A stretch of DNA of 61,697 bases from a virus. Lineage: Duplodnaviria > Caudoviricetes. The notes under the pieces are model-generated. The model was not told where the DNA came from. It made no database searches and saw only the letters and a program-made list of their open reading frames with translations. The stretch covers positions 1 to 61,697 of the IMG/VR virus record IMGVR_UViG_3300047550_003451. One strand, written 5' to 3'. Positions 1 to 61,697 of the stretch are shown one piece after another. A program made the translations under genes and the position numbers. Positions within the stretch are counted from its first letter, which is position 1. Each line of letters starts with the position of its first letter.

Positions 1-212
1 GCGACGCCTGCGGCACAACACAGCACAGAGACACGAATGCAGCAGTGAACATCCGCAATTGGGGACATCAACAATGGACAATAGATCATGCAGGGCAGGA
101 ACTGCCCCAAGCGCCTGTGGATGTGATCACAGATATTCTAACTCATTGGGGTCTGCTGTCAGCCAATACGATCAAGCAGCAAGCCACAGCCCTTTAGGGC
201 GTGGTAGTTCAC
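1..212 (+). mobile_element. tnpB: 3' end of IS200/IS605-family element: tnpB C-terminus (Zn-finger/RuvC-III) plus right-end hairpin
   Basis: Translates to DACGTTQHRDTNAAVNIRNWG... (TnpB 'RDxNAAxNI' motif); ends in GCCACAGCCCTTTAGGGCGTGGTAGTTCAC. Truncated by window start. Confidence 0.88.
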
Positions 213-1112
213 TAATAAACAAACTAGCTTGACGTTCTCAGTAGTCAGCAGTTGGAGCCAAGATCCCACAACAGCCCGTCAATTTGCTGTCACCCAACCT
301 ACCTACCAACTCAATCCTCAGGTTATGGCAGCTCATGGGATCCAACAATCAAGGAAAGAAGCACTCAGCGGTTACAGAGGCGTGATTTTGAAAATGCACC
401 TTGACGCAAATCAAGCAATAGATGTGGATGCAAGCGGTGTAGGACATGAAAGCGAAATTGTTGTGCCACCGGGGACATATGTCATTGAAATTGATCAAAT
501 AATCAAGAAATATGAACACCAGTTACAGGACAAGGACACTGACATCAATCAAGTGGTGTTGAATACAAACAGAGAAGATTTGAAAAAATCTAATACTGAG
601 CATAGGTTCTTTGATTATGTGATTCATCATCATGTGAAAGAATTATCACCCAAGGCACAAGAGCACTTGTATAATTTGTATGCTCCTCTCCCAGGTGGTC
701 CATCCTTTGTATATGATGTGGATACATCACAAGATTATTTCACCAAAAAAGATCGAATCAGAGTAGAGTATCATGTGCCCAGTTGGAAATTGTTTGAATT
801 GGCCCATCAGGGTGCATTCAATTCACAAAAAATCAAAAAGATTCAAAATCTAGGCAAACAAATTATCAATCAAGCGTTGCCTGTGGTCAAGGAATATGCT
901 GCCACAGCAACGGAGTTCAATCCTCAATTACTCAAATTTATTGGACGAATGTCTCAAGACAATCGTATAGATAAAACTATCCAACAAGTATTCAGGAATT
1001 GAACAACCAGGTAAGAGATATCAACAAGATCAAAGATCCCAAAGAACAATCTCACGCAATTGAAGATTACAAAAATGAATTGACTAGATTGTTACAAAGA
1101 GTTGGTGGTTAG
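213..1112 (+). pseudogene. Interrupted ADP-ribosyltransferase-like gene (5' part cut off by the IS; frameshift near 990)
   Basis: SSWS..A..FA and HESEIVVPPG resemble ART S-x-S and E-x-E motifs. Frame is open back to the IS right end. Coding-like sequence QELNNQVRDINK...RVGG* continues in another frame to 1112. Confidence 0.5.
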
Positions 1113-1113
1113 A

Positions 1114-1932
1114 TCATAACAATTTCTTATCATAATCATCTACCAATCTTACAAGATCCTCATATTTTATACTGCTTGCGGTGTGCTTTTTGGCATTTTC
1201 AGAGAATAACATTAGCTCACAATTCATTACATGAGTAATATAATATGGATCATAATTTTTGCGAATAGATTCATTGACACTAACTTTATGATCACGAGTA
1301 TATCCGTTTGGGTTCTTTTTTGATCGAAAGCCAATCTTTTTTAGAGAGTTTAAATCAAATAGTGACGGATAATCAAAAACATTAAACGTAAACCAAAAAA
1401 CAGCTCTTCCATTATGGCTATATCTGTCTCTACAATTGTCGCAATATTTTCGGCGACGCATAGTAAGAAATTCTTGGTTACAATGATGGCAAGTGGAACA
1501 ATTTTGTGATTGTTGTAATTTTTTGCTTACTAGTTTGGGACGATTGACAGCACATGTTTGTGAACAATATTTTGCAGATCTACGTTTACACAGGGCCCCA
1601 CAGATAGCACAACTTGGTAAGTCTGGTTGATAATCATTTTTAGGATTGTAGCCATTTGTTTTGACAACCGAATTCCTGATGCGCATCTTTGTATCTAATG
1701 AATGTTGTCTCCTTGTATTACTATATGATGCAGAGCAAGATTGACTGCAAAATCTGAACTGCCCTTTTTTTAGGGCTGTTTGGCATGATCGACATTCATT
1801 TTCAGCAAAATGTTTTTGTCTTGATTTGGTTGAACACTGAGGGGAACAAAAAGTTTTACCATAACTTGCACCTTTGACCAAAAATGGGGAGGTGCAGAAT
1901 TTACAGATTTCTTGATATGGGTATTTGGCCAT
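1114..1932 (-). CDS. Zinc-ribbon-repeat protein with C-terminal HNH-like homing endonuclease domain
   Basis: Multiple CxxC...(F/Y)CSxxC repeats; C-terminal YTRDHKVS...NCELM...ENAKK; GGAG RBS before ATG at 1932. Confidence 0.6.
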   Translation of the reverse strand: MAKYPYQEICKFCTSPFLVKGASYGKTFCSPQCSTKSRQKHFAENECRSCQTALKKGQFRFCSQSCSASYSNTRRQHSLDTKMRIRNSVVKTNGYNPKNDYQPDLPSCAICGALCKRRSAKYCSQTCAVNRPKLVSKKLQQSQNCSTCHHCNQEFLTMRRRKYCDNCRDRYSHNGRAVFWFTFNVFDYPSLFDLNSLKKIGFRSKKNPNGYTRDHKVSVNESIRKNYDPYYITHVMNCELMLFSENAKKHTASSIKYEDLVRLVDDYDKKLL

Positions 1933-2459: not shown

Positions 2460-2672
2460 ATGGCTCGACACTGGCCCTACCATTCCGTGATTTCTCCTCT
2501 AACTGCGGATCAACAAAGGAAAATTATCCTCTGGTGCAAAACTCAATTTGGAGATTTGAGTTACCAACATTGGGCACATCACAACACAAACTCCAAACTA
2601 ACCGTGTATTTTTGTGACCAATTTCTCAAAACCCAATTTGATCTCACATGGTGCAACACATTGCAAATATAG
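2460..2672 (+). CDS. Small hypothetical phage protein
   Basis: 70-aa ORF preceded by TAAATA motif; WC..W..F..F.LTW pattern. Confidence 0.55.
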   Translation: MARHWPYHSVISPLTADQQRKIILWCKTQFGDLSYQHWAHHNTNSKLTVYFCDQFLKTQFDLTWCNTLQI

Positions 2673-2685
2673 TAAGAATGACCTC

Positions 2686-3642
2686 ATGGACGTCCAAAGC
2701 GTCTCCTCCCTCATGCACGGCAAGAAAGATTGCCTGATCGGAGCAAGCGGTGGAGTGGACAGCATGTCCATGCTGCACTGGATGGCCAGGAACCGAGGCA
2801 AGCTACCAGTACCTGTCCGTGTGATGCACGTCGATCACGGCATCCATCCGAGCAGCGGAGATTGGGCCCAGCATGTCATGGAGACCTGCAGGGAGCTGGA
2901 CATCCGGTGCGAGGTCAAGAGGGTCAGCCTGGAAGGTCTGGGAAACAATCTCGAATACGCAGCCCGCCGGGCAAGATACAAGGCCTTCTGCGAAAGTGGT
3001 GCCGACGCGTTGGTTCTCGCCCACCATGCGAACGCTCAGTGCGAAAGCTTCCTCCTGAAGCTGTTCAGGGGTAGCGGTGTTAAGGGGTTGAAGGTGATGG
3101 GTGCCAGCGTTCCGTGCTGGTACGACGAGACCGTTACGGTGTTGCGGCCGCTGCTGAACGTAACAAGGGGAAGGATCGAGACATGGGCCGAGGAACACGG
3201 AATCATCAGCGTCGAGGACCCATCCAACTCGGATGACAGGTATGATCGGAACTACATCCGCAACCGTATCTGGCCGGTGATCCAGGAGAGGTTCGACATC
3301 GCCGACATCAATACCATCCGCAGCATCCAGCACCTCGGCGAGGCGTGGGAGCTGACGGTGATCCTGGCGGACCAGGACATTGCCTCGGTCACCATGCCGG
3401 ATGGTAGCATGGAATGGTCCAAGGTCAAGGATCTGGGATACCTGCGGATCAAGAACATGATCCTGCGCATCCTCGACAGGGAAGGGATCTATGGGTTCAG
3501 CATCAACCACGTAGAACAGTTTTCCCGGGGAATCATGGAAGCCGACCTTGACAGCCGGAATGAGCTCAGCCTCCGTGGATTTTCCATCCAAAAGATCGGC
3601 AAGCGCATCCATGTCTCAAGCAAGCAGCAGCAGGCAGCCTGA
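2686..3642 (+). CDS. tilS: tRNA(Ile)-lysidine synthetase (short form lacking the distal C-terminal domain)
   Basis: PP-loop SGGVDS, HVDHG, LEYAARRARY, LAHHANAQCESFL, RPLL, DPSN...YDRNYIR. GC-rich relative to flanks. Confidence 0.93.
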   Translation: MDVQSVSSLMHGKKDCLIGASGGVDSMSMLHWMARNRGKLPVPVRVMHVDHGIHPSSGDWAQHVMETCRELDIRCEVKRVSLEGLGNNLEYAARRARYKAFCESGADALVLAHHANAQCESFLLKLFRGSGVKGLKVMGASVPCWYDETVTVLRPLLNVTRGRIETWAEEHGIISVEDPSNSDDRYDRNYIRNRIWPVIQERFDIADINTIRSIQHLGEAWELTVILADQDIASVTMPDGSMEWSKVKDLGYLRIKNMILRILDREGIYGFSINHVEQFSRGIMEADLDSRNELSLRGFSIQKIGKRIHVSSKQQQAA

Positions 3643-3805: not shown

Positions 3806-3967
3806 ATGCACTCCGCCACGGTGCTCAACAACGGCATTGACCGCAAGCTGGACCTGAGGTGTTTCTACACCGGCGTGGTATGTGACCCGCCTCCGGCCAA
3901 GCCAGAGTCAGGGTGGAACATGGATCCGAAACTGATAGTTATTGAGATCATATATTTCTATAAATGA
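3806..3967 (+). pseudogene. Truncated GC-rich ORF (possible HNH-nuclease N-terminus)
   Basis: MHSATV...LRCFYTG...; GC-rich coding style stops abruptly at ~3930 where the tnpB remnant abuts. Confidence 0.25.
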
Positions 3968-4268
3968 TCTTATATTTTTTAACAAAGGGACTATATGCTC
4001 CTCTGTTGCGGATATTGATAGCGCCATTCAAGTGGGCATCTATTTCATATCCACAACTCAAACACGAGAATCGTTCGCCTTGGCGCGATTGCTTGTGTTT
4101 GACCCCGCATGCACTGCAAGTTTGCGATGTGTATGCTGCATGTACGCGAGTTATCCGGACGCCGTTCTCTTCGCATGCATGTTCTATCCTTTGCTGGGCC
4201 AAGCCCACGCGCCAGAATTGATTCCGTCTACCCCAACGATTGGGAGAGAACTGAATTGTCTCCCACAC
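3948..4268 (-). pseudogene. tnpB: TnpB/Cas12f-like C-terminal fragment (different lineage from the other tnpB remnants)
   Basis: VHAAYTSQTCSACG...FSCLSCGYEIDAHLNGAINI; N-terminal two-thirds missing. Confidence 0.8.
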
Positions 4269-8459: not shown

Positions 8460-8500
8460 ACATTGGTCCCTATTGATCTTAATATCTATATTTATGTCTC

Positions 8501-8586
8501 GCCGCTATCCATCCAGGAAATCTAGCCCTTTGGCTTTCCTTGACAGATTGTGAACTACCACAGCCTAAAGGGCGTGGTAGTTCACA
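8501..8586. repeat. IS605-type left-end remnant (minus strand) plus palindromic double right end
   Basis: GCCGCTATCCATCCAGG...TGGCTTTCC (8501-8539) and TGTGAACTACCAC-N12-GTGGTAGTTCACA (8549-8586). Confidence 0.8.
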
Positions 8587-8625: not shown

Positions 8626-9058
8626 ATGATTGTTCCTGTGCAAAATTATATCAAAAACCATTGGCCCACAGCCAAGTGCATAGCTGATGCTGGCTGGGCT
8701 ATGCTGGCTGGTGCGTTGGCCTACAAGTGCCAAAGGCAGGGCCATCATCTTGTCAAGATCAATCAGTTGCTACCCAATAGCAAAAACCTGTATAGCATGT
8801 GGCACCCGCAAAAGTCACATGGATCTCAAGCAAAGAGAATACCATTGTGATCTTTGTGGAATCACTCAGCACAGACACACTAATGCAGCCATCAATATCC
8901 GCAACTGGGTACATCAACCGTGGACAATAGATCACGCAGGGCAGGACCTGCCCCCTGCGCCTGTGGATGTGATCACAGATATTCTCTACAATTGGGGTCT
9001 GCTGTCAGTGACTACGATCAAACAGCCAGCTGTTGGTGTTCACACCAACAGTAGTTCC
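8626..9058 (+). pseudogene. tnpB: Frameshifted tnpB 3' half with alternative right-end hairpin
   Basis: IADAGWAML..LAYKC / KTCIACG...YHCDLCG...HRHTNAAINIRN in two frames; ends CTGTTGGTG-TTCA-CACCAACAG-TAGTTCC. Confidence 0.88.
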
Positions 9059-11702: not shown

Positions 11703-12953
<1,251 letters not shown>

Positions 12954-47282: not shown

Positions 47283-47283
47283 C

Positions 47284-48783: not shown

Positions 48784-49014
48784 ATGAGCAAGGAAGATCA
48801 GATACAAGTGCAGGGCACTGTGGTGGAAGTTTGCCCCAATGCCCTGTTTAGAGTCAAGTTAGAAAATCAAGTTGTAATTTTGGCACATATAAGTGGCAAA
48901 CTTAGAATTCATAATATCAACATTCATTTAAATGACGTTGTGACTGTGGAAATGAGTCCTTATGATTGGCAAAAAGGACGCATCATTTTCCGTCAACGCA
49001 GACACAAAACATGA
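48784..49014 (+). CDS. infA: Translation initiation factor IF-1
   Basis: MSKED.I...G.V.E..PNALFRV.LEN...LAHISGK.R...VEMSPYD..KGRI.FR. Confidence 0.95.
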
Positions 49015-49033
49015 TGGGGATTGTTGATGTTTG

Positions 49034-49073
49034 GTGAACTACTGTTGCGTCTTTAGACGCAACAGGCTTGCGC
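49034..49073 (-). repeat. Solo IS605-type right end (third hairpin variant)
   Basis: GCCTGTTGCGTCTAAAGACGCAACAGTAGTTCAC; a degenerate relative lies at ~16060-16093. Confidence 0.75.
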
Positions 49074-49112
49074 TGCCAAGGACTAAAGCCTTGCCAACCT
49101 ATGCGTGGTCCA

Positions 49113-50171: not shown

Positions 50172-50286
50172 AATGGTTCCTCAAAGGATGTAGTTTTTTC
50201 TGCAAGATTTTCGATTGCCATTTCAAAATGTGGATACAGCACATAATTTGCACACCTGGATTTGTGTGGTGGACTTCTAATCACAA

Positions 50287-50336
50287 GCCGCTATCCATCC
50301 AGGGTTTAAAGGCGCCTGGCTTTTCCGCGGCGGGAG
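50287..50336 (-). repeat. Solo IS605-type left end
   Basis: CTCCCGCCGCGGAAAAGCCAGGCGCCTTTAAACCCTGGATGGATAGCGGC. Confidence 0.85.
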
Positions 50337-50371
50337 AGAACAATCCACAAACTGACCTTGTGCTTCATATG

Positions 50372-51427
50372 TCAATTGACCTTGCTTTGGGCTATGGACA
50401 GATTGTTCTGTAAGCGTTGGTCCTCTGGATTCAAGGCACATGCCTGTGTAAAATATTCCACGCTTTTGTCCCACAAACACAAATTCCAACAACTTATTCC
50501 TGCCAGATCCCATAATTTGGCCCCCCATGCTTCCACACTATCCAAGTAACTGCCTGTTTTGTGAGTGATTTTCAATGCCTCAGCACTGGCGGCCCAACAG
50601 TTCAACCAATCACATGAATGATAATAGTGCTCTGCCAACTCCAGCCAAGGTTCTCTACGATAGGGTGCTGTGTTACAAGCTGTTCGTAACCAATATATTT
50701 TTTCATTAACCAGGAATCTGCTCAACCATCTTTCTGCCTCGCTTTTTTCAGTAGCCCAAGCATGAGGCATGGCAATAAATTTTTTGAACAAGTCAACAGC
50801 TTGATCTCGATTATTTTGATAAGCATGTTCTCTAGCCAACCAAAACAATGTTTGACTGCAATCGGGATTTTCCAAGTGGCTGAGTTCCAACAAGGGCAAA
50901 TATTGCGACCTACTGGTTTTTTGTGTGTCTTGCTTTTGCCACATGGTCACATTCATATTGGTGACTGTGGTCTCATCCTGTGCGCTAAAAACAGTTTCAT
51001 GCACAGGACGCTTCCATCTATAGCCCCATCTGGCATGGCATTTGTCAGCACTGTAAACATTCAAAGGTTGATCCAGATGGTCAAAACTGTGCACATAGGT
51101 ATATCTCAAACGAGTGGCTCCTGGGATCCAGGATTTTTCCAGCTCATTGCGCCAACCAGGGGCCATCAATTCATCCATGTCCATGCTCAGACAGACATCA
51201 CAATCAGAGGGGAGCAAGCTGAGGGCAATATTTCTTGCATCATCAAATCTCCAAGGACGCACTCCAATTGTGTGCACTTTGACACCGAGATTGGTCAGTA
51301 TTTGAGGCGTATTGTCAGTACTGCCAGTATCTGCAACAACCAGATAATCAGCGTCTCTAACACTATCTGCCCACCTTTGTGCAAACTTGGCTTCATCCAA
51401 TGCAATGGTATAAACTGCGATACGCAC
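50372..51427 (-). CDS. GT2-family glycosyltransferase with TPR repeats (paralogue)
   Basis: VADTGSTD, RFDDARN, MDMDE, RW.RPVHE; TPRs; AAGGAG RBS. Confidence 0.87.
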   Translation of the reverse strand: MRIAVYTIALDEAKFAQRWADSVRDADYLVVADTGSTDNTPQILTNLGVKVHTIGVRPWRFDDARNIALSLLPSDCDVCLSMDMDELMAPGWRNELEKSWIPGATRLRYTYVHSFDHLDQPLNVYSADKCHARWGYRWKRPVHETVFSAQDETTVTNMNVTMWQKQDTQKTSRSQYLPLLELSHLENPDCSQTLFWLAREHAYQNNRDQAVDLFKKFIAMPHAWATEKSEAERWLSRFLVNEKIYWLRTACNTAPYRREPWLELAEHYYHSCDWLNCWAASAEALKITHKTGSYLDSVEAWGAKLWDLAGISCWNLCLWDKSVEYFTQACALNPEDQRLQNNLSIAQSKVN

Positions 51428-51440
51428 ACTAACTCCTTGT

Positions 51441-51742
51441 GTGAAGTACCACGCCCTAAGGGCTGTGGCTTCCTGCTAGATTCCAGTTCACCTTTAGCCA
51501 ATGAGTTTAGGCATTGGTGTGTTCCGGTCCACAGGTGAAATTTTTTTACGGACTCAGGGCACTTCCTGCCCTAGTCCCTGCGATATTGCTACCGGTATAT
51601 TCCAAGCCCGCGAGGGCTCTTGCTACATCACTAATACTAATTATACATAGAGGTTAACACAAATGCAATATGTATCAAAAAAATATTTCAATCACAAGCC
51701 ACTATCCATCCATGGCCCAAAGGCGCCCTGGCTTTCCGCGGC
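51441..51742 (-). mobile_element. Non-autonomous IS605-type MITE with omegaRNA-like scaffold, copy 3 (left tip eroded)
   Basis: Same internal sequence as copies 1 and 2; right end GTGGTACTTCAC abuts the GT gene RBS. Confidence 0.86.
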
Positions 51743-51753
51743 ATAAAACAAAA

Positions 51754-52221
51754 TTAATTTTTGAACAACCCCACATGATCACTACAAATACCCACACATG
51801 GTTTGTCAGCTATCCAGGATACCAATTTCTTAGGATCAATCACATGTTCAGGCATAACAGCAATGCTCCAGGTGGTAAGCTGAGCCTGTGGATGTGTCCA
51901 CCAATAACCCCAGCTTGTGAGAACACGAGAATCATCTTGATGCCAAAAGTAATTCAATCTAGCACTAGTCATGTACATCTGATTGAGATAATTACATGCT
52001 TCTAGATCTTTGGCATGAATCCACAAACGTGGATTGAGCAAAAAACTGTTGTCAATTTTGTAATCACATGAATCATGTCCCAAATACAACTGATGGTCCT
52101 TCATTCGAAGATCAATTTCTACATTAAATCCCAAATCTAATGCTACTAGCACCTGTTGTGGATGGTTTTCTCTATCTTTGTTGGGACCTTCCCATAAACC
52201 TCTATGAGCTATTAACAACAT
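51754..52221 (-). CDS. Small glycerophosphodiester-phosphodiesterase-like protein
   Basis: IAHRG, EN, VEIDL, LGHD, WIHAK, GICSD. Confidence 0.7.
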   Translation of the reverse strand: MLLIAHRGLWEGPNKDRENHPQQVLVALDLGFNVEIDLRMKDHQLYLGHDSCDYKIDNSFLLNPRLWIHAKDLEACNYLNQMYMTSARLNYFWHQDDSRVLTSWGYWWTHPQAQLTTWSIAVMPEHVIDPKKLVSWIADKPCVGICSDHVGLFKN

Positions 52222-52271
52222 GTGGAATTGTTGGCAATTTATTGCTGCAAGGTCAATATTTCCTCTAAAAG

Positions 52272-52961
52272 TCAAGGCATAATATGTGTTTCTCTAACTA
52301 TCCCATTATGCCACGTGTGTTCTTTAATTGGCAAGTTATGATATGCCAAATGTGCTCTCACGAACAATTCGCTACAAAAATCAATCTTGTGATAGTTGTA
52401 TAAAAAAGGAATGTTGTCCACCAAATCGCCATATAATGTCATATTGTCACTGTTGCCATAGGCAAATTGATCATTAACTCCCACCAAGTCCCACCCCATT
52501 CCGTGAAAATGGAATTTGTGTCCTGCTAGTGTGGGGGTGTATGCCAAATTTATGGCATCATTAATTTCCAGATCCACACTAGCCAAAAACCAGTCAAATC
52601 TAGCCCTAATGCACACATCATATTTGAATCCCTGCTGTATTTCCCACTGCCTTCGCAAGTGCTGACTGCGTTGAACACTGGTGAATTGACTGATCACTGA
52701 TTGTGGACTAGTACGGTGAGGCCAAATACGTTCGGTGTAACCACTCACATTAAAGTCAGGCATAGAATCCATGGTCAATATGATTGGGTTGTATGCTCTT
52801 TGGATAATTTGTTGGGTTTTCCAGTTTATTTGATAATTTTGCGTTTGCCAACAATGTACAAAAACGTCAGCACAATAGGGATCCAGTATACTGTTTTTCC
52901 AAAAACTGACAGTTCTTTCCAAATATCTAGGAAAACCACTAAAACACAAGGCAACTTTCAT
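52272..52961 (-). CDS. Putative glycosyltransferase-like sugar-modifying enzyme
   Basis: KVALCFSG.PR, DVF.H.W, YDVCIRARFD, NDQFAYG. Confidence 0.6.
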   Translation of the reverse strand: MKVALCFSGFPRYLERTVSFWKNSILDPYCADVFVHCWQTQNYQINWKTQQIIQRAYNPIILTMDSMPDFNVSGYTERIWPHRTSPQSVISQFTSVQRSQHLRRQWEIQQGFKYDVCIRARFDWFLASVDLEINDAINLAYTPTLAGHKFHFHGMGWDLVGVNDQFAYGNSDNMTLYGDLVDNIPFLYNYHKIDFCSELFVRAHLAYHNLPIKEHTWHNGIVRETHIMP

Positions 52962-52971
52962 TTTCTTATCT

Positions 52972-52988
52972 CCCTGGCTTTCCGCGGC
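52972..52988 (-). repeat. Half left-end remnant
   Basis: GCCGCGGAAAGCCAGGG on the minus strand. Confidence 0.6.
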
Positions 52989-53000
52989 AGACAGCAATTT

Positions 53001-54161
53001 CTAAAAATTGCCAGGGACAAAATTGGTTATTTTGTCCACAGATTGTCTTATTTGTCTGGCCCCTGCAACAGTACCTAGAGGATGGCTATGAATACCACCA
53101 CCACTATTAGCTAGCCAATCTACACCAAATTTTTCAACTATGGGTGGGATTAAATCTGCTGTCAAGCCACAGCTTAAAGCTGGAGTTACATTTCCATCAG
53201 TGAGTATCTTCATTGTCATACGCAGTTCTGTTTCTGGATCTGACAGGTAACCACCCCACATGCCAGCATGTATAGTATCAACTCCACACCACGCTGCCAG
53301 TTGACAACAAAGCTGCCAAGATATGGAAAAATAGTTTTGTTGATGAGTAAACACTTTGTCACCGCTCTTTTGATAATGAATATAAAGAGGTAAATCAAGA
53401 TCACGTATGCTCTTATAAGAACCCAATCCACTCCAAACGTTGATATGCACACCACGACCTCCGTTTTGTGCAACAAATTTGGCCCTCGGCACTATATATG
53501 CAGGATCAGCATTTATACAAAAGCAGTAAACTACCTTGGTGTTATGAATGTATTTGCTGATAAGCTCCACCCTATCCTCCAATCTACAAATTGCTGGATT
53601 ACTCATGATTTCATCTTCTTTGATGAAATCAACACCACCATCCACCAGCTGTTTGGTTATGTCCAACAACTGTTGTGGAGTAATACCAGTCTTGGGCTTG
53701 ACAATGCCACCAAAAAGTGGTTTATTGTATTGCCCTGTAAGTTGACGAAACCCGCTAAGACCGTATTTGGGTTTTTGGAAATTTGCAGCAACATATGCTG
53801 GGCTGAACTCTAGACTGAGAGCACGACAGCGGCGTATGCGATCAATATCAGTGTTTCCTCCCATGATCATACAAACCAACTGGGCCACACCATCAGTGGC
53901 CCAGTCAATGTTAGCTAGGGGGAAACCAATTTCAACTAATCCTGTTGGTTTGTCAAGATCTGGCCCCTGCAAGATTTTGCAGCAATAATCTTCTATCATT
54001 TGTGGAGTTTCCCACACACTTCTCATGGATGGATTTCCCACAGACTGGCCTACTGCTAAATCGTATGCAGCTTCTCGCACAGTTGTTGAACTGGTAATTT
54101 GATATAATACATAATAGTAGTTGTCTAGATCTTTGTAATCTTGGTAAATATCCATGGTCAT
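53001..54161 (-). CDS. RuBisCO-like protein (form IV-like RLP)
   Basis: GQSVG, KPKTG, GGVDFIKEDE, HAG, PALSCG, GGGIHSHP.G; lacks HxHRA and the loop-6 Lys. Confidence 0.9.
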   Translation of the reverse strand: MTMDIYQDYKDLDNYYYVLYQITSSTTVREAAYDLAVGQSVGNPSMRSVWETPQMIEDYCCKILQGPDLDKPTGLVEIGFPLANIDWATDGVAQLVCMIMGGNTDIDRIRRCRALSLEFSPAYVAANFQKPKYGLSGFRQLTGQYNKPLFGGIVKPKTGITPQQLLDITKQLVDGGVDFIKEDEIMSNPAICRLEDRVELISKYIHNTKVVYCFCINADPAYIVPRAKFVAQNGGRGVHINVWSGLGSYKSIRDLDLPLYIHYQKSGDKVFTHQQNYFSISWQLCCQLAAWCGVDTIHAGMWGGYLSDPETELRMTMKILTDGNVTPALSCGLTADLIPPIVEKFGVDWLANSGGGIHSHPLGTVAGARQIRQSVDKITNFVPGNF

Positions 54162-54204
54162 TTGATGTTCCTCGGAATAGGATAAATGGATCAGTTTAAC
54201 TTAG

Positions 54205-54531
54205 TTAATTGGTGACTTCATATTTGTCGTTGGGTACACTGGGTAGTTTAACTACAATCAATTGTACGTCTGTGAGGAAAATTGGCGTGCTAATTTCGCC
54301 CTGGGCAATAACAAAAACAACTGGTGCTTGCAGTCTCTGCCCTCCTATTTCCATGACCCCACTAATCAAATAATTTATTTCGTCAGCTATTTTATGATAA
54401 TGTGCTGGCCATTTTTCACCAGCATAGTGAGTTTTGTAACTCACTTCACATACTTGTGTTTTGTAGGCTGTGGGTTCAAAATTTCCCACAAACCATCCTC
54501 CAATAAATTTACGTGTGTCAAAAATTTTCAT
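54205..54531 (-). CDS. Cupin-fold protein
   Basis: GGWFVGNFEP, HYHKIADEIN.LISG. Confidence 0.7.
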   Translation of the reverse strand: MKIFDTRKFIGGWFVGNFEPTAYKTQVCEVSYKTHYAGEKWPAHYHKIADEINYLISGVMEIGGQRLQAPVVFVIAQGEISTPIFLTDVQLIVVKLPSVPNDKYEVTN

Positions 54532-54562
54532 GACTGATGAGTTCTAACTATTTGAGTTTCTG

Positions 54563-55300
54563 TTAACGTGGTTGGGAATCATGACTGTGTTGATCCAAAT
54601 ATATACACAAATCTTCAGGAGTACCAATCGGCCAATGACACCCATCATTTAGTTTATAGATACCAATTTTATGACCCTGGGCAATATTCCAATTGAATGT
54701 AGGACAAACATAATATTCATTGTTTTCTCTCATATCCAAATCAATCATTTGTTGGGCTGCTGAAAAAAAATCTTGTGCTTGTTTCCAAACATAAATTCCA
54801 TTGCTAGCATGTTCACTAATCACTTGTTTTTCTACAGTTTTGACTACCAGTCCTTGGGAATTTACCTTGGCATAGCTGTTTTTGGGATGCTGACTAAAGT
54901 AGGTGACAATCACACCATCCAACGGACTGTTGAGAAACCAGTTATGAAAATGTAGTGGGTTCCAAATCATTATCTGATCGCAGTTGGCAATCATCAGGGG
55001 CTGATGTTGTTCCACACTAGACTTGGCAATCAAACAGCTTTCAGCCGCACCATTGGTCAATTGATCCAATAGCACAACCTCAAGAGATTCCACCATCGTT
55101 TTAATCTGGTCAAAAACATGATGGTATTGAACATAGTGCTCACGCTGAACTACCAAAGTAAATTTATTTTGAACACCCAAGTTAGCTACAACATGTTCAA
55201 TCATGGTTCTCTGGTGAAATTCAATAAATGGTTTGGGACGACTGTAACCTGCTTGAACAAATCTACGGCCAGCTCCTCCCATTGGTATAACTATTTGCAT
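54563..55300 (-). CDS. Sugar-phosphate nucleotidyltransferase-like protein
   Basis: VIPMGGAGRRF..AGY..PKP, T.GAA, IANCDQ, EK.VIS, NNEYYVCP, IGTPEDL. Confidence 0.82.
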   Translation of the reverse strand: MQIVIPMGGAGRRFVQAGYSRPKPFIEFHQRTMIEHVVANLGVQNKFTLVVQREHYVQYHHVFDQIKTMVESLEVVLLDQLTNGAAESCLIAKSSVEQHQPLMIANCDQIMIWNPLHFHNWFLNSPLDGVIVTYFSQHPKNSYAKVNSQGLVVKTVEKQVISEHASNGIYVWKQAQDFFSAAQQMIDLDMRENNEYYVCPTFNWNIAQGHKIGIYKLNDGCHWPIGTPEDLCIYLDQHSHDSQPR

Positions 55301-55379
55301 TTGTCCCCCGTCAACTTAATTTTAATTTTGCTGTAATTGTGTTAGAATTGCAATTAAGGGGAAATTATTCAGGACATAT

Positions 55380-55634
55380 GTGAACTCCCACGCCCTAAAG
55401 GGCTGTGGCTTTCTGCTTGATCGTAGTAGCTGACAGTTGTTTGCACATGTCAAACTGCCAAACAAATTTTTTGTTTATCTCTTGGAGCGGAAGGTCACTG
55501 GCTTTCAAGCCAGTGGATGGATAGCGAGTGGTATAACTAGGGATATCGTAGTTTCATCAATCTATTTATATAATCTATTCAAACAGCCGCTATCCATCCA
55601 GGGCCTAAAGGCGCCTGGCTTTCCGCGGCGGGAG
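55380..55634 (-). mobile_element. Deleted IS605-type element (left end, tnpB 5' scrap, right end) with nested inverted left-end variant
   Basis: Left end 55634-55586; TATAAATA; 55437-55473 matches the tnpB remnant at ~43240; right end ...GTGGGAGTTCAC at 55380. Confidence 0.8.
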
Positions 55635-55638
55635 GTAG

Positions 55639-56460
55639 GTGACAATGACATATGTAATTGACAAATTTGATTTAGATTGTTTGAAGCTTGATCAATCAGT
55701 GATCATTTGGTGTAGACAGGGGTTGGGTGATCATATCATAGCAGCAGGTGCAATCAATCAAATCAGTCAAAGAGTGGATAAAGCATATGTTTTGTGTAGA
55801 ACTTCTCATTATACTAGTATTTGTCATATGTTCAAACACTGTCCCAACATTATAGTGTTGGATCATCAAAAATTCACAAACACTGCTGGATCAGATCCCA
55901 ACCGACAGCAATTGGAACACATACAACAGGCTCTGGGAGCCAGTTATATTTTGCCTATCATGCAAGAGTGGTATTTTGTCAGCAGTGCTTGGATGCAAGG
56001 AGCATACGAACAGTATGGATTGGATTATCAATCACGCTGGCAGTGCTGGCCTTATATAGAAGCCACTCCTCGTGGCAGTGAAATTTTACAATACTTGCAG
56101 AATTTGCATCAAAATTATATTTTGTTACATGATTACAGTAGTGAATGTGAAAAATATGATATTGATTTATCTGTAAGCCAACAAGGAAACTGTATGCCCT
56201 GGGTACGCATAATGCCCGATTGTGTACCACATTTACACAGTGACAATATTTTTGATTGGGTGCCCACTTTATTGCATGCTCAAGAAATACATGTTGTAAC
56301 CAGCAGTCCCATGCACTTGTTGGAACAACTCCAGCATCAAATCAATGGTCCAGTGTATTTCCATCACAAACGAGACCATACACGTATAGATCTAGCTCGG
56401 GATTTGAGTACACATCATAAATGGATATTGATAGATTATGAACAAAAACAATTTAGATGA
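55639..56460 (+). CDS. Putative glycosyltransferase-like protein
   Basis: QGLGDHI N-terminal motif, IFDW...L..A.EIH...SS (GT-B/GT9-like). Confidence 0.55.
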   Translation: MTMTYVIDKFDLDCLKLDQSVIIWCRQGLGDHIIAAGAINQISQRVDKAYVLCRTSHYTSICHMFKHCPNIIVLDHQKFTNTAGSDPNRQQLEHIQQALGASYILPIMQEWYFVSSAWMQGAYEQYGLDYQSRWQCWPYIEATPRGSEILQYLQNLHQNYILLHDYSSECEKYDIDLSVSQQGNCMPWVRIMPDCVPHLHSDNIFDWVPTLLHAQEIHVVTSSPMHLLEQLQHQINGPVYFHHKRDHTRIDLARDLSTHHKWILIDYEQKQFR

Positions 56461-56461
56461 A

Positions 56462-57103
56462 TTAGGGTTGTCTTGGGTAGTGAGCAAGTGCATTCAATCC
56501 GTGGAATCCAAAGCTTTTTGTGAACCATGAATTGTTCCAACACTGCTCAATACTAAATTGGTGTGCTAGGTTTTCTGGTGCAAAAACTATTCCTTGGGTT
56601 TGCAAGACATGTCGTTGATGGATGCAGATGGTGTTATCTTCAGGATAATTATAGTCTATTTGTAGATTTTTTAAACAATTTAACAATCTTTTGCTACGCA
56701 AGCTAAATCCACCATTGCCCACAGAGGAGTGGACTGGCGCTAGTGAGGATGGCCAAACAGCTCCTATATAATCATAACACAAAAACTCTTGTGTCCAAGC
56801 CTGCGAATTCACAGCGTAGCCGTCCCATTGCACTACTAAAACATGATCCTCTTGAATCAACCATGGTAATGTGTGTAAGCAATGATAATTGTACTCATAG
56901 GGGAAATTCTCTATTTTGGATATTGGGTGATGAATAATGGGCAAGCGGCCAGCCATACTGAACATTTGATCACTCAACCAATACACGCACTGCACTGGTT
57001 GTTGTGTATGGTTCAAACATTCCCAAGTTTGGAGAACTGCTTGTTCAGCCCTCTCATGGTGGATTGTATCTATACAAACAATGCTTAAAGTTGACATTGA
57101 CAA
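56462..57103 (-). CDS. DUF5672-like GT-A fold protein
   Basis: VQWDGY, YDYIGA.W, VGNGGFSLRSK, PED, FS.E, FGFHG. Confidence 0.72.
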   Translation of the reverse strand: MSMSTLSIVCIDTIHHERAEQAVLQTWECLNHTQQPVQCVYWLSDQMFSMAGRLPIIHHPISKIENFPYEYNYHCLHTLPWLIQEDHVLVVQWDGYAVNSQAWTQEFLCYDYIGAVWPSSLAPVHSSVGNGGFSLRSKRLLNCLKNLQIDYNYPEDNTICIHQRHVLQTQGIVFAPENLAHQFSIEQCWNNSWFTKSFGFHGLNALAHYPRQP

Positions 57104-57221
57104 TTTTATGAGCTAACACATATGGTTGTCTATTTGGCTGATTGGTTGAATTCAAAGAAATCAAGTTAGACCACCTGATTCAGTTGTGAACTACTACATA
57201 GTGGGCTAGTTTGTAGGTTGG

Positions 57222-57890
57222 TCAATTTTTTTCAAATGCTCTTGCAATGTTTACACTACTATTTTTGATCACGATTTCTTGTTGTAATAAATTGGAGGGC
57301 TCTATCAACCAGTCTGCACCTACAAATCCCAGAATATCTCCACGTGTGGTAAACAGTGGGCATCTAATCATGCTTTTGGCCTGCCTGGTTTCATAATACC
57401 AATGTCCCCAACTGTTTTGGGTGTTATCCAAATTTTTGTACACCACACAAAGATTCTTGGCAAATTGGGAGTGACTGGTACCATTCAAACTACTGGGTAT
57501 GCGTTGATGAAACAAAATTACTCTGCTCACCCCGGCGCGAATAATTTCATGTGTGTTGGTGTGAAACATGAATGGTATGCCAACCACACTGGGCACACCA
57601 TTATGATATCTAAACACATAGGTACGATCAGCTTGAATTGAAGTCAACAACTGTTGTAGTTCTTGATTGATGTGGGAATCTATAGCAACAGTTGTGCTCA
57701 ACTCTTGTTTGAAGTGCTCTATACTTTGACTTTTTTGCCAAGCTGTGTATACAGCTGGAAAATGAAAAGTCACAATATAAGTGACACTGCATACAATCAA
57801 CACACAACACAGCCACACAAGATGCAAAAACATCTTGAGTAAACCAGCTTGTTTGAAATATCTCAATAACATTTGCAACACTGGCTGCAT
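57222..57890 (-). CDS. Single-TM protein with GAF-like C-terminal domain; candidate T4 T-like holin
   Basis: Amphipathic N-terminus, one hydrophobic helix, ADRTYVFRYHNG...CPL...LGFVGAD; CATAAATA upstream. Confidence 0.45.
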   Translation of the reverse strand: MQPVLQMLLRYFKQAGLLKMFLHLVWLCCVLIVCSVTYIVTFHFPAVYTAWQKSQSIEHFKQELSTTVAIDSHINQELQQLLTSIQADRTYVFRYHNGVPSVVGIPFMFHTNTHEIIRAGVSRVILFHQRIPSSLNGTSHSQFAKNLCVVYKNLDNTQNSWGHWYYETRQAKSMIRCPLFTTRGDILGFVGADWLIEPSNLLQQEIVIKNSSVNIARAFEKN

Positions 57891-57916
57891 GCAGAATTCT
57901 CCCTTATGCTATTTAT

Positions 57917-58112
57917 GTCCCGCCGCGGAAAGCCAGGGCGCTAGAGTCCCTGGATGGATAACGGCATTTGACTCTATTATGTGTACTACCACGCCCTAAA
58001 GGGCTGTGGCTTCCTGCTTGATCGTGCTGGCTGATATCTCACTCAGGGGGGAAATGTCAGCCACTAGGATCAAGCAGCCTGCTGTTGGTCTAATAAACCA
58101 ACAGCAGTTCAC
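57917..58112. mobile_element. Mini IS605-type element: left end plus two inverted right-end segments with different hairpins
   Basis: Left end 57917-57965; minus-strand right end from 57981; plus-strand right end ending CAGTTCAC at 58112. Confidence 0.78.
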
Positions 58113-58177
58113 CTGAGCAATCTTGTGGCACTGTCTAGGGGCTTGATTTGTGGAGCACAATTTATTAGACTTTGTCC

Positions 58178-59044
58178 ATGCAGGACCTTTATAAAATACT
58201 TGGAGTGGATGAATCAGCCACTCAGGAACAAATCAAAAAAGCTTTTCGCCAACTGGCCAAACAATATCATCCGGATAATCAACAACAGGGCAATGATCAA
58301 AAATTCAAAGAAATCAATCAAGCCTACGAAATTTTGAGTGATAGTGTCAAAAGGCAACAATATGATCAACAGAGAACATTTGGCAGCGGATTTCAACAAT
58401 GGCATCATGCTGGTGGGTCAGCTCCTTTTGAATTTCATGCTAATTTTGGTGGCAATATCAATGACATTTTTGAAAATTTGTTTGCTAGGGGAGGATTCAA
58501 TCCATTTGCCCAGTCTAGACCCATGCGCAATGCTGATCAGGTAGTTCAGTTAACCATCACTTTGGAAGATGCTTTTGTTGGCACAAGCATGCCAGTGCAA
58601 TGGACCAACAGCAACCAACAAACCACCCAATTGAACATTAACATTCCTTCTGGCATAGAACACGGCACACGGCTGCGTTATCCAGGCAATGGATCTCGTA
58701 ATAATGCCAATCTTCCTCCTGGAGATCTGATCATCATAGTGCACATACAACCTCACCCCAAATTTGAACGACAAGCAGCTAATTTGATCACCACTCTAGA
58801 ATTGACTATTTGGGAAAGTTTAGTGGGCACTGAAAAAATAATCCAAACCATTTGTAATCAACAAGTGAAAGTTACCATTCCAGCATTGTGTAATCCCAAC
58901 ACAGTGTTGAGAGTGAGCAACAAAGGTATGCCCTTGACCTCAGGATCAAACAGCCGTGGTGACCTTTTGATCAGACTCAACATACCCATGCCCAAAAGTC
59001 TCACACCACAGCAAATTAGCACGATCCAAAGCTGGATCAAATAG
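58178..59044 (+). CDS. dnaJ: DnaJ-class (CbpA-like, no Zn finger) co-chaperone
   Basis: J domain with HPD, G/F-rich linker, C-terminal GDL repeats. Confidence 0.92.
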
Positions 59045-59070
59045 ACCCCATCTTTATAGGAGCTAAGCAT

Positions 59071-61362
59071 ATGAGCAGCACCAATCCCACTAGTATTGAA
59101 AAAATACTCAATCGAAGTTTTGATTTGGCTGTAGAATACCAACATGAGTATGTTACCCTTGAACATGTGCTCATGAGCTGTTTGGAACAACCACAATTGG
59201 CATCAGTGCTCAAGGGCATGGGCAAGAATGTAAATAAAATCACACAAGATTTGCATGATTTTTTGCAAGATACCCACAAGCATGCACTCATGGGTGAAAT
59301 CAGATATCAGCCCAAATATACTGGCACTGTCAAAACATTGGTCAAACAAGCCAAAACTCAAAGCATGTTCATGAACAAACAAGAATTGGATGAAGTTGAT
59401 CTTGTGGTGGCCATGTTCAACACTCAAAACAGCTGGGCAGTGTATGTACTCAATGTGCATGGTATAAACAAAGCCAACTTCATGGAAACTATAACAACCA
59501 ACAGTCAGGATCAAGACCAGCAGATCACTCCTGATCAAGCCAAAATTATACTTGCCCAATTTGCAATCAATCTCAACAGACGTGCGCAGCAAAACAAAAT
59601 AGACCCCCTGATTGGCAGAGTTCAAGATGTAAAACAGATTGTTCACACGCTGGCGCGCAAAAACAAGAACAATGTGTTGTTGGTGGGACACCCTGGTACT
59701 GGCAAAACTCAGATTGTGGAAGGTCTCGCACAATTGATTGAACAAAAACAAGTGTCGCCTCTGCTTTGGCACAATGAGATTTGGAGTTTGGATGTGAGCA
59801 GCATAGTGGCTGGCACCAAATTTAGGGGTGATTTTGAAGATAGGATGAAGCAACTGCTGGTTGCGTTACGACAACTGCCTAACGTGATTTTGTTTATTGA
59901 TGAAATTCACATGATCATGGGCGCAGGCAGTGGTGGCAGCAACAACAGCATGGATGTGGCCAATATTCTCAAACCTGCACTGGGTAGAGGAGAAATTTGT
60001 GTGATTGGCAGCACCACACATGAAGAATATCGCAAGTATTTTGAGAAAGATAGAGCTCTTGCCAGACGGTTTGTCAAGCAAGACGTTCAAGAGCCCAATC
60101 CGCAAGACGCACAAAAAATACTGGAAGCTCTAGTGCCCATTTATGAAAAGTTCCACAATGTAAACTATCATCCACAATGTGCGCAAGCATGTGTGGACTT
60201 GAGTGTGAAATACATAACCAACAAATATTTGCCAGACAAAGCATTGGATTTGCTGGATGCTGCTGGTGCTGCTGTCAAGCTGAGCGAAACAGCTTGTGTG
60301 ACAGTGGAAAATGTGCAACAGCAATTGAGCAAGATCACAGGCATCAATCCAGAAACCATCACACAACAAAAATCATCAGCTACAGAAAATCTTTTGCAAA
60401 ATCTACAAAGCAGACTGTTTGGCCAAGACAAGGCAGTAATTCAAGTGGTTGAAAGTGTATGGATGGCACAAAGTGGTTTGCGTGACAGTCACAAAACCAT
60501 GTGCAGTTTTTTGTTTAGTGGGCCCAGTGGTGTGGGTAAAACCGAATTAGCCCGTTTGCTAGCAGAAAATTTAGATTATGCTTTTGTGCGATTTGACATG
60601 AGCGAGTTCCAAGAAAAACACAGCCTGAGCAGGTTGATTGGAAGCCCACCAGGTTATGTGGGCTATGCTGATGGACAAACTGGTAGTGGTGCATTGATCA
60701 ACGCTTTGGAACAAACACCTCAATGCGTGCTGTTGATTGATGAAGTAGAAAAAGCACATCCAGATGTGTGCAATGTGTTTTTGCAAGCCATGGATCATGG
60801 TGTGATCACCAGCAGCAATCAACAGTCTGTGAGTGTAAAAAACACGATTTTGATTTTTACCAGCAATTTGGGAGCTGACCTAATGGAACGCAATGCACTG
60901 GGCTTTGGCCGTAGTCAGCCAATTACAGATGCCACACAGGCTGTGAATAGGTTTTTTGCTCCTGAATTCCGCAATCGGTTGGATGGTTTGATCACATTTG
61001 GCAAGTTGGAACCTGGCACAATGCAACATATACTAGACAAGTTCATTTTAGAGCTGAATGATTTGTGTAAACCCAAAAACATTCATGTGGTTGTGGACCA
61101 TTTGGCGCAGGAATGGTTGATCAAAAATGGATTTGATTCTGCCTTGGGAGCTAGACCGTTGCAACGTTGTTTGGATCAACATATTAAAAAGCCCATGAGC
61201 AAAGAGATTTTGTTTGGTAAACTGCAAGAAGGTGGAAGGGTTTTGGCTAGTGTTTGCAAAGACACCAACCAAATCAAGTTGGATTTTTTAAGTTTGGCCC
61301 ACGCTGAATCTCACCAGCAAGTGTTGTGGGACTGTCTCTTGGATGTGGAGACTGTGAGTTGA
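59071..61362 (+). CDS. clpA: ClpA-type AAA+ unfoldase
   Basis: HEYVTLEH N-domain, two AAA modules (GHPGTGKT, GPSGVGKT), IGSPPGYVG, GARPL; no ClpB/C coiled coil. Confidence 0.92.
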   Translation: MSSTNPTSIEKILNRSFDLAVEYQHEYVTLEHVLMSCLEQPQLASVLKGMGKNVNKITQDLHDFLQDTHKHALMGEIRYQPKYTGTVKTLVKQAKTQSMFMNKQELDEVDLVVAMFNTQNSWAVYVLNVHGINKANFMETITTNSQDQDQQITPDQAKIILAQFAINLNRRAQQNKIDPLIGRVQDVKQIVHTLARKNKNNVLLVGHPGTGKTQIVEGLAQLIEQKQVSPLLWHNEIWSLDVSSIVAGTKFRGDFEDRMKQLLVALRQLPNVILFIDEIHMIMGAGSGGSNNSMDVANILKPALGRGEICVIGSTTHEEYRKYFEKDRALARRFVKQDVQEPNPQDAQKILEALVPIYEKFHNVNYHPQCAQACVDLSVKYITNKYLPDKALDLLDAAGAAVKLSETACVTVENVQQQLSKITGINPETITQQKSSATENLLQNLQSRLFGQDKAVIQVVESVWMAQSGLRDSHKTMCSFLFSGPSGVGKTELARLLAENLDYAFVRFDMSEFQEKHSLSRLIGSPPGYVGYADGQTGSGALINALEQTPQCVLLIDEVEKAHPDVCNVFLQAMDHGVITSSNQQSVSVKNTILIFTSNLGADLMERNALGFGRSQPITDATQAVNRFFAPEFRNRLDGLITFGKLEPGTMQHILDKFILELNDLCKPKNIHVVVDHLAQEWLIKNGFDSALGARPLQRCLDQHIKKPMSKEILFGKLQEGGRVLASVCKDTNQIKLDFLSLAHAESHQQVLWDCLLDVETVS

Positions 61363-61655
61363 TTTTGCTTAATTTGGTTTCCCAGAATCTTGTGGGCAAA
61401 GGTACCTGGGTGGGAGTTCAAACAAATGAACACAAAATATTGCGTAGGCTAGTAGTCGAGCGGATCACTGCCCAGGGCCAAATAACAGCCCTGGATGTGA
61501 ATACCAATCAAAAATTTACATTTGCACATACATGTGTGGTAGAAATAGAAGGTATGTCACTGCCTAGGTTTTTACAACAGGCTGATTTGGACTCTAATGG
61601 CATCAAAATCACCAACATCATACGTAGAGGTAGAAAACCCAAATTGCGATCCTAA
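61359..61655 (+). CDS. Hypothetical protein
   Basis: Overlaps the clpA stop; basic C-terminus RRGRKPK. Confidence 0.55.
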   Translation: MILLNLVSQNLVGKGTWVGVQTNEHKILRRLVVERITAQGQITALDVNTNQKFTFAHTCVVEIEGMSLPRFLQQADLDSNGIKITNIIRRGRKPKLRS

Positions 61656-61669
61656 GTTGACTGTGCTAG

Positions 61670-61697
61670 GTGAACTGCCACGCCCTCTAGGACTGTG
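61670..61697 (-). repeat. IS605-type right end (element continues beyond window)
   Basis: CACAGTCCTAGAGGGCGTGGCAGTTCAC on the minus strand. Confidence 0.8.

Follow-up and report, generated by a model that had tools for sequence, protein, structure and literature searches.

The DNA analysed here is the whole of IMG/VR virus record IMGVR_UViG_3300047550_003451, 61,697 bases without end repeats, which we call the window. It is a fragment of a freshwater tailed phage of the jumbo type, with a completeness estimated by CheckV at 9%, and it carries many ends of insertion sequences (IS) of the IS200/IS605 family. We consider it likely that the window holds the fossil record of an IS608-type IS200/IS605 population living in this lineage of giant freshwater phages. 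The elements are, we infer, selfish passengers of which most are now dead, and not a guide library encoded by the phage.

IS200/IS605 ends and their elements

Both end families come out at once in a general repeat search of the window. Profiles of the two ends, left (LE) and right (RE), seeded from four copies and run with nhmmer, found 13 LE copies and 12 REs of the commoner type 1. All 12 of the LEs listed in a first-pass annotation of this DNA were recovered by the profile (8501, 15057, 16750, 26220, 30309, 37832, 43430, 50336, 51742, 52988, 55634 and 57917). The thirteenth, absent from that list, is an LE-like copy at 55475-55532 that is nested inside another element. Type-1 REs have the stem CCACAGCCC/GGGCGTGG and the terminus ...GTAGTTCAC, and are located at 212, 8550/8585, 14754, 25913, 27198, 30621, 51441, 55380, 57981 and 61670. 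A 15-mer of this type, with two mismatches at most, has 11 matches against 0.05 expected from shuffles. Type-2 REs have the stem CTGTTGG.../...CCAACAG and end in ...TAGTTCA, as type 1 does. Their motif gives 8 matches against 0.12 expected, 7 of them at sites already listed (9058, 15652, 37911/37927, 38850, 49035 and 58111; stem intervals 9046-9058, 15652-15664, 37911-37939, 38850-38862, 49035-47 and 58099-58111). The eighth, at 4520 within a large gene, is probably a chance match. For the LE, a 16-mer with up to three mismatches has 8 matches against 0.21 expected. Sixteen of the 17 REs on the earlier list are real; the one at ~57186 remains unconfirmed, consisting of the terminal ~12 nt without a hairpin and missed by the LE and RE profiles and by the motif searches of the window. 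These are IS200/IS605 ends, far above chance, and the earlier identification of the family and of several copies as PATE-like (palindrome-associated transposable elements) is borne out.

The density of ends is high for a phage, as had been claimed. In its 61.7 kb the window has 13 LE and 19 RE matches. The 617,778 bases surrounding the clamp-loader gene at 55 related phage loci gave 0 LE and 0 RE, and four other viral contigs with the family have 7 LE and 9 RE in 194 kb. The pieces of elements add up to ~3.9 kb, or ~6.4% of the window, and all are intergenic. The first-pass annotation had called most of them intergenic, and indeed no element interrupts an open reading frame (ORF) with a Pfam domain. 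The seeming overlaps at 14765, 25964 and 52997 are upstream ORF extensions, and the homology begins past the element (checked against relatives for PATE B, described below).

An intact element of a related viral contig (G001:23789-25074) was used as the ruler for mapping the copies. It is complete with 1286 nt and reads TTAC, an LE with a bulged hairpin, a 397-aa tnpB and the end ...GTAGTTCAC. The LE folds into an outer stem and a bulged inner hairpin, and the tnpB gene runs into the RE, its stop codon falling in the loop of the RE hairpin. Subterminal imperfect palindromes are read at LE and RE and there are no terminal inverted repeats, as in IS608. The TnpB of the family is homologous to ISDra2 TnpB (8exa/8h1j, E 2e-53), and its three RuvC motifs are aligned to the corresponding ones of a designed TnpB-like nuclease, the best PDB match. 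The likeness to IS608 and ISDra2, as far as these are described in the sources at hand, extends to the subterminal hairpins at both ends, the insertion 3' of TTAC without duplication, the overlap of tnpB with the RE and the TnpB homology. The window differs from them in having fragments and gene-less derivatives only, in two RE stem types that share one tnpB/omegaRNA lineage, in the occurrence of the family on viral and metagenome contigs only and in a 3' region without an Rfam match.

The copies in the window, mapped on this reference, are given below. The omegaRNA region, the predicted guide RNA scaffold of TnpB, corresponds to the last ~180 nt of the element. TNB and HTH (helix-turn-helix) are the C-terminal and N-terminal domains of TnpB, and HMM stands for hidden Markov model.

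9-212 (+): tnpB 3' end with omegaRNA region and type-1 RE; reference 1083-1286 at 88%, TNB 6-53, RE motif 198-212
3935-4242 (-): IS607-type tnpB 3' fragment of a second lineage, 308 nt; 94.5% identical to G001:6990-7298, TNB 4011-4196 (E 4.6e-21)
8497-8586 (-): RE/LE junction of a 5'-eroded LE (8497-8547) and a palindromic RE hairpin (8549-8586); LE HMM E 1.7e-11, RE HMM matching both strands
8664-9058 (+): tnpB 3' fragment (reference 893-1258) with omegaRNA region and type-2 RE; one stop in the tnpB frame, TNB 8783-8899
14754-15057 (-): PATE A, complete, with TTAC, LE, scaffold block and RE; ~12 nt upstream of a dCMP-deaminase-like gene
15651-16056 (-): tnpB 3' fragment (reference 882-1286) with open frame and type-2 RE; 94% identical to the 8783-9057 copy, TNB 15811-16014
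16746-16798 (+): solo LE after TTAC; LE HMM E 1.2e-15
25913-26220 (-): PATE B, complete, 308 nt, after TTAC; between a stop codon and the ribosome-binding site (RBS) of the next gene
27170-27198 (+): solo type-1 RE hairpin, 29 nt, without scaffold; 100% match to reference 1258-1286
30305-30621 (+): internally deleted mini-element of TTAC, 27 nt of LE, tnpB 3' part (reference 1014-1282, 78%) and RE; RE tail of 15 nt duplicated
37827-37939 (+): tiny LE and palindromic type-2 hairpin, without scaffold; LE HMM E 1.6e-17, type-2 motif on both strands at 37911-37939
38849-39029 (-): omegaRNA-region fragment, 181 nt (reference 1107-1286), with type-2 RE; antisense to both neighbouring genes
43149-43484 (-): degenerate, partly duplicated LE and tnpB 5' part (reference 37-336), frame broken
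49033-49072 (-): solo type-2 hairpin with terminus ...TAGTTCAC, between two convergent genes
50276-50340 (-): solo LE, hairpin apex lost; LE HMM E 3.5e-18
51441-51750 (-): PATE C, LE tip eroded; 14 nt upstream of a GT2-TPR gene
52967-52997 (-): LE fragment, 31 nt; LE HMM E 1.9e-05, exact 16-mer match
55380-55637 (-): internally deleted mini-element joining reference 1-97 (LE and the start of tnpB, 20 nt), reference 209-248 and the final 54 nt, which include the RE; it holds the nested LE-like copy 55475-55532 (+)
57913-58112 (both strands): composite of an LE (+) at 57913-57980, a 62-nt RE stub (-) at 57981-58042 and a type-2-like RE stub (+) at 58040-58112
61670-61697 (-): type-1 RE cut by the contig end, the element running past the window; RE profile and motif

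The full mini-elements are three complete gene-less PATEs of 308 nt (A, B and C) and three shorter ones with LE and RE. All six agree with the definition of a PATE, namely both IS ends, no protein-coding gene and several copies (14754-15057, 25913-26220, 51441-51742 and the three shorter minis). There are four 3' pieces of tnpB, one of them cut by the contig start, and one 5' piece. The copy at the contig start (9-212) may be full-length in the real genome. The remainder comprises four solo or fragmentary LEs, several bare or stub REs, two abnormal junctions and the IS607-type fragment, a lineage that the earlier list had left merged with the IS605 scraps. One abnormal junction, at 8497-8586, is an RE-LE junction and no normal element; its RE hairpin and LE lie 4 nt apart, like a circle junction or a tandem insertion. 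The other has an LE head-to-head with an RE stub (57913-58042).

PATE B is a case where the site can be compared with and without the element. The gene order around it matches that of four relatives (L040, L041, L043 and L047), in which the flanking genes are 30-48 nt apart vs ~350 nt in the window. The surplus DNA is exactly the 308-nt element, placed after TTAC without target duplication, in a spacer of ~25 nt that is empty in the relatives; one of them (L047) has TTTTAC there. These alignments show PATE B to be a clean insertion after TTAC. TTAC also stands directly before 4 of the 9 readable LEs of the window and before the LE of the reference element. Thirteen of the 16 scorable loci are co-oriented with the local genes and three are opposite (p 0.02). 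The target of IS608 is TTAC and its insertion is coupled to the lagging strand, in the part of Karvelis 2021 available to us. The co-orientation fits such a replication-coupled insertion into the lagging-strand template, but it could instead come from selection against antisense insertions.

No tnpA had been reported for the window, and a Pfam search for Y1_Tnp agrees, with 0 matches at E<=1. The window copies are thus non-autonomous derivatives. The OrfB_IS605/RuvC core of TnpB has no Pfam match anywhere in the window either, and by domain the tnpB scraps are five TNB matches and one broken N-terminal HTH match. The first-pass annotation had also held that these scraps are mostly 3' ends. This stands as a count, with five 3' and two 5' scraps by DNA mapping (9-212, cut by the contig end, left out), but the excess is not significant (binomial p = 0.45).

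How might such a collection have arisen? The TnpA that mobilised the elements would have been supplied by another part of the phage genome or by co-resident elements, and would have inserted them, in single-stranded form, at TTAC sites laid open while the phage DNA replicated. Purifying selection would have removed the insertions in genes and left the intergenic copies. Internal deletions would then have produced the gene-less PATEs, and further deletion the solo ends. Most copies in the window are probably immobile, judging from the state of their ends.

The two RE stem types are found on tnpB 3' regions that are otherwise 85-90% identical. This suggests either that lineages have exchanged hairpins or that there are two transposase specificities. 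A Y1_Tnp tnpA was found in one of five related viral records examined (G001), where it adjoins a tnpB and belongs to an element with type-2 hairpins at both ends. Full-length tnpB (OrfB_IS605) is present in 4 of the 5, with up to four copies per 57-kb contig. The lineage assigned to IS607 has a full tnpB copy in the same contig, where it follows an ORF with serine resolvase and HTH_17 (G001:7025-8759); the window copy at 3935-4242 is a 3' fragment only, probably of this type.

The reference element itself lies within an ORF for a family-B DNA polymerase, in its intein part (L031:1477-3813; Intein_splicing at aa 696-771), the usual place of an intein's homing endonuclease. Its virtual excision does not restore one long frame. 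In another related contig (G003), an intein is present in the ribonucleotide reductase, and a helicase carries a LAGLIDADG domain.

Probable residence of the family in phages

The exact RE is found as 12 stretches on 9 other viral contigs. In cellular genomes, searched with one genome for each of 185,579 species, it occurs on only two short contigs of metagenome-assembled genomes (MAGs). The first (4.8 kb) has a tnpB that is 78% DNA-identical to a viral copy and the second (5.5 kb) has a bare hairpin. Of the 29 viral loci with the LE 16-mer, 12 have a true LE. The same 16-mer has at least 120 single matches in contigs of unrelated genomes, most of them rich in GC, and a true LE was seen at none of the 80 such loci examined. 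TnpB relatives at 60-92% identity have metagenome sources only, several being on contigs of 333-572 kb. The best relatives confirmed in the genome collection are 35-36% identical, in an exact-peptide-word scan that reaches close relatives only. From these sequence comparisons the family looks phage-resident.

Another possibility is that the phage has no transposase of its own and that the ends were captured repeatedly from the IS pool of an unsampled host, by many jumps into replicating phage DNA. The lack of tnpA in the window and the two MAG contigs with the RE would agree with this. So would the cyanophages A-1(L) and PA-SR01, whose single tnpB copies, identical or 90% identical to those of the host, are read as recent acquisitions in the sections of the papers we could draw on. 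We nevertheless find host capture unlikely. The RE is on two short contigs only, true LEs were absent from the 80 genome loci examined, the confirmed genomic TnpB relatives are distant within the reach of the scan, and the related viral contigs carry their own tnpA and several tnpB. The copies are also diverged and common to several populations, as described below, which points to a long residence in phages. A-1(L) and PA-SR01 are likewise freshwater phages with tnpB elements, but, as far as they are described there, they have single host-like copies, whereas the window has ~20 diverged loci for which no close cellular counterpart was found.

The age of the copies can be seen from their decay. 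They diverge by 5-25% within the window and there are stop codons in the tnpB remnants. In the remnant at 43149-43484, two stops fall within the HTH match and four are in the best frame of the 292-nt piece 43149-43440. The canonical LE fold is kept at a stability like that of the reference in only 2 of 9 window LEs, and those of PATEs A, B and C are not among them; in PATE A it is lost. The best-preserved fold is that of the solo LE at 16746-16798 (DNA fold -16.2 kcal/mol, z -3.9). Contigs of other studies bridge several element boundaries. Those of run X3 reach over 55380 (RE boundary), 57913 (LE) and 43393-43484 (the degenerate LE), and for PATE C the LE boundary at 51742 is spanned by a contig of run X5. 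These insertions are therefore shared among populations that were sampled. The summed contig depth over the repeats is 5-40x that of neighbouring bins in three runs, a figure that gives no copy number but shows the family to outnumber by far, in those communities, every single-copy part of this phage.

Both window ends sit within repeat copies when mapped onto the 1286-nt reference, as expected if the assembly broke at repeats, and contigs from other runs break at the repeats as well. Two kinds of candidate for recent change were rejected. A 20-nt motif for the empty PATE B junction matched two metagenome contigs, neither similar to the window, and was taken as chance. Joints in run contigs that link different repeat copies by short sides (21-54 nt) are repeat artefacts, and none skips exactly one element. 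A larger difference is seen at ~52222-55690. One X3 contig matches 51844-52221 and 55691-56550 and has ~2.3 kb of other DNA between them vs ~3.5 kb in the window, where this part holds genes for a RuBisCO-like protein and NTP-transferase and the mini-element at 55380. The difference is a cassette replacement at strain level, with repeat copies at its borders. Run X3 also gives little or no cover over parts of 49884-51197, from which we draw no inference.

Putative omegaRNA scaffolds and their predicted guides

The RNA of TnpB, also termed reRNA, has a scaffold of ~100-150 nt at the tnpB 3' end and RE, followed by a guide of ~16 nt from the flank; the scaffold size is that given in the portion of Karvelis 2021 consulted. 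In an alignment of 21 copies, the conserved blocks of the putative omegaRNA region are a GGGCAG...CTGCCC hairpin, CCTGTGGA, ATTGG, AGCAGGAAGCC and the terminal hairpin, and PATEs A, B and C share them. Covariation is seen in the terminal RE hairpin only, where 6 pairs are changed on both sides. Of 50 pairs predicted in the PATE scaffold, 0 are changed on both sides among four copies that are too similar to each other and of which the fourth is shortened at its 3' end. Rfam has no family at gathering score in the window, and three loci that hold intact elements gave no match at E<=1.

For the upstream half of the PATE interior no parent was identified. A 24-nt motif of the interior matches just one copy, in G001, in the viral contig collection (viral_contigs), and a BLAST of four related contigs gave no tnpB with the 3' region of the interior. 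A promoter picked out by eye in the interior (TTGCAT, 17 nt, TATAAA/TATAAT; kept in A, B and C) was dropped, as a consensus scan calls none in PATE B or C.

The first-pass annotation had proposed a dispersed guide library with one guide per locus. In its domesticated form, omegaRNA-bearing REs would be kept for a TnpB of the phage or the host and directed against competing phages or the host. Several observations fit this idea. A scaffold of at least 130 nt is kept at eight of the ~19 RE-derived loci (9-212, 8664-9058, 15651-16056, 30347-30606, 38849-39029 and PATEs A, B and C), with the conserved blocks except for CCTGTGGA, which is mutated in the mini-element at 30305-30621. Between the three PATEs the scaffold is 91-95% identical vs 74-82% for the LE (Fisher p 0.0002-0.011, the pairs not being independent), although their LE hairpins are degraded. 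A G001 copy that has no LE keeps the scaffold at 92-93%. TnpB genes that are intact and, by their motifs, apparently catalytic are found in the same contig group. PATE omegaRNAs acting in trans have already been proposed in print (PMC10055086, in the part available).

Nevertheless, we judge a domesticated library to be improbable. The idea of one guide per locus fails, as the other ~11 RE loci are hairpin stubs (29-73 nt) that lack the scaffold. The better conservation of the omegaRNA part, which had been expected of a library, holds for the PATE scaffolds relative to the LE but not for the tnpB remnants relative to their coding part. In the three tnpB 3' remnants with both parts, the identities of omegaRNA and coding part are 90 vs 93%, 90 vs 88% and 87 vs 77% (p 0.44, 0.73 and 0.11). 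The covariation is confined to the terminal hairpin, which TnpA needs as DNA anyway. Targets of the flanks next to TTAC, for which the earlier annotation had suggested a search, did not turn up when TTAC plus 12 nt of 17 flanks was searched in the window and ~260 loci, bar one match of 16 nt (L040:3859). This match is A-rich and opposite in orientation to the synteny, and we treat it as chance. No RNA data set was listed for 49000-58200, and a run labelled RNA-Seq (X19) was set aside as expression evidence, being flagged as probably DNA.

The guide also adjoins the insertion by construction. In the parts consulted of Karvelis 2021 and Meers et al. (PMC10055086), the TnpB guide is the flank and its target is the donor joint of TTAC and flank. 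Each locus would then recognise only its own empty allele, and its natural target would be the empty site of the same phage. By this known mechanism the guides would be a collection of selfish homing guides and not a library against other genomes. A dense field of REs is no guide library unless its scaffolds are intact, expressed and matched to targets.

The hairpins could also be kept for a structural role, such as mRNA 3'-end protection, termination or recombination, like repetitive extragenic palindromes (REPs) of bacteria. Four or five are bare and intergenic (27170, 49033, 8549 and 37911), several lie just past convergent gene ends, and the stem covaries. Such stem covariation is, however, equally expected from TnpA recognising the DNA hairpin. 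No terminator was called in the two PATE regions scanned (PATE B and PATE C), the hairpins have no following T runs, no RAYT or Y1 gene is present in the window and bare hairpins are few. A structural role thus seems highly improbable to us. The earlier comparison with a REP-like repeat family is good as a resemblance: like REPs and bacterial interspersed mosaic elements (BIMEs), these are short intergenic palindromes related to IS200/IS605 ends. It goes no further, since there is no RAYT or Y1 gene, only four or five hairpins are bare and most loci are larger element fragments.

We return to the resident population of selfish elements. T4-like phages carry free-standing homing endonuclease genes, which are small selfish intergenic insertions that spread by cutting the empty allele and by recombinational repair. 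The scaffold-bearing loci of the window, eight in number and best kept in the three PATEs, might behave in a similar manner. They would use TnpB in trans to cut the empty allele of TTAC and flank, and the element would be copied back by recombination in a recombining phage pool or in mixed infection. Homing of this kind would explain the fixation of so many copies and the better conservation of the PATE scaffold. The analogy lies in the many selfish insertions between the genes of a large phage and in a predicted spread through mixed infection. In the window, unlike in T4-like phages, recognition would be by an RNA guide and TTAC, and most loci lack the nuclease gene, which would act in trans.

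Several points weigh against a resident population of mostly dead elements. The window has neither tnpA nor an intact tnpB, so that this phage's own enzymes are a deduction. A tnpA cognate to the commoner type-1 ends was not seen, and the sole tnpA sits with type-2 hairpins. No backbone DNA is common to the window and the two related contigs G001 and G003. No empty (polymorphic) allele was found among the contigs of close strains, so recent mobility is unsupported. To our knowledge, the homing step of such elements has been tried in no phage. Finally, the conservation of the PATE scaffold and the LE-less G001 copy point to continuing selection on the RNA, for which dead fossils alone would be insufficient.

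A bolder hypothesis, which we think unlikely, is that the lineage keeps its own IS605/TnpB population as a distributed RNA-guided system of homing and exclusion. If so, the eight scaffold loci, best kept in the PATEs 12-15 nt upstream of gene starts, would guide a phage-encoded TnpB to the empty allele of TTAC and flank in co-infecting relatives, and the flanking phage genes would be inherited preferentially. It would be an RNA-guided counterpart of the marker exclusion by homing endonucleases in T4-like phages, and would explain why the scaffold is conserved after the LE has decayed. Complete PATEs A, B and C all lie upstream of a co-oriented gene start (14740, 25898 and 51427), and the predicted guide of each is the RBS and start of the downstream gene. 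This position may merely reflect short spacers, or TTAC just before the RBS.

The kind of element and the idea of PATE omegaRNAs in trans are already known from the available part of PMC10055086. In that preprint, Meers et al. describe PATEs as often encoding omegaRNAs that need the TnpB of other elements in trans. The PATE-like elements of Geobacillus stearothermophilus described there are, like ours, gene-less LE-RE units of ~100-310 nt in several copies, with an omegaRNA-homologous scaffold and a dependence on TnpA and TnpB in trans. The present ones differ in their phage setting, with ~1 locus per 3 kb, in having mostly degraded LEs and in that no parent is identified for the upstream half of the 308-nt interior. 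What is unusual here is the density in a phage, the several coexisting lineages with two RE stem types and the apparent restriction to viral contigs. tnpB genes have been reported to be frequent in phages, and the paper on PA-SR01, in the portion seen, calls IS elements rare and disadvantageous in phage genomes. Full-text literature searches found no paper on a phage genome with many PATE-like elements. The family is apparently limited to a small set of viral contigs, in which intact tnpB, tnpA and an IS607-type element are found too. Should this hold on a closed genome, we would have a clear example of a transposon family living and diversifying in a virus and not in a cell, and a natural setting for a test of TnpB-omegaRNA homing between co-infecting phage genomes.

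The phage and its other genes

The first-pass annotation had called the DNA a phage, and this is confirmed by a gene set of very large tailed phages and by the kinship of the clamp loader. Genes of tailed phages include a gp44-like clamp loader, a DNA polymerase III alpha fragment, PhoH and three collagen-repeat proteins, and there are ORFs of 1387, 1099 and 2250 aa. The clamp loader shares 46% identity with its counterpart in PA5oct-type Pseudomonas jumbo phages and 62-77% with those of uncultured viral contigs of up to 310 kb, with which the gene order is conserved. Metagenomes of nine studies (freshwater, lake and sediment) hold DNA that is near-identical to the window.

The load of host-like genes is unusual (43517-48774, 53001-54161, 17118-17681, 13720-14415, 58172-61362 and 2614-3642). 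It comprises a PrkA-DUF444-ClpP-SpoVR block, a RuBisCO-like protein, an Fe/Mn superoxide dismutase, a ferritin-like protein, DnaJ with a ClpB-like ATPase and a TilS-like PP-loop protein. For a HAD gene between PATE A and the remnant at 15651, no relatives were found in viral_contigs.

Three ORFs encode collagen-like Gly-X-Y repeats (11703-12953, 22073-23149 and 27313-30165) with periodicities of 9, 45, 57 and 63 nt. They dominate the output of the repeat search and are unrelated to the IS ends. These ORFs probably encode fibre proteins.

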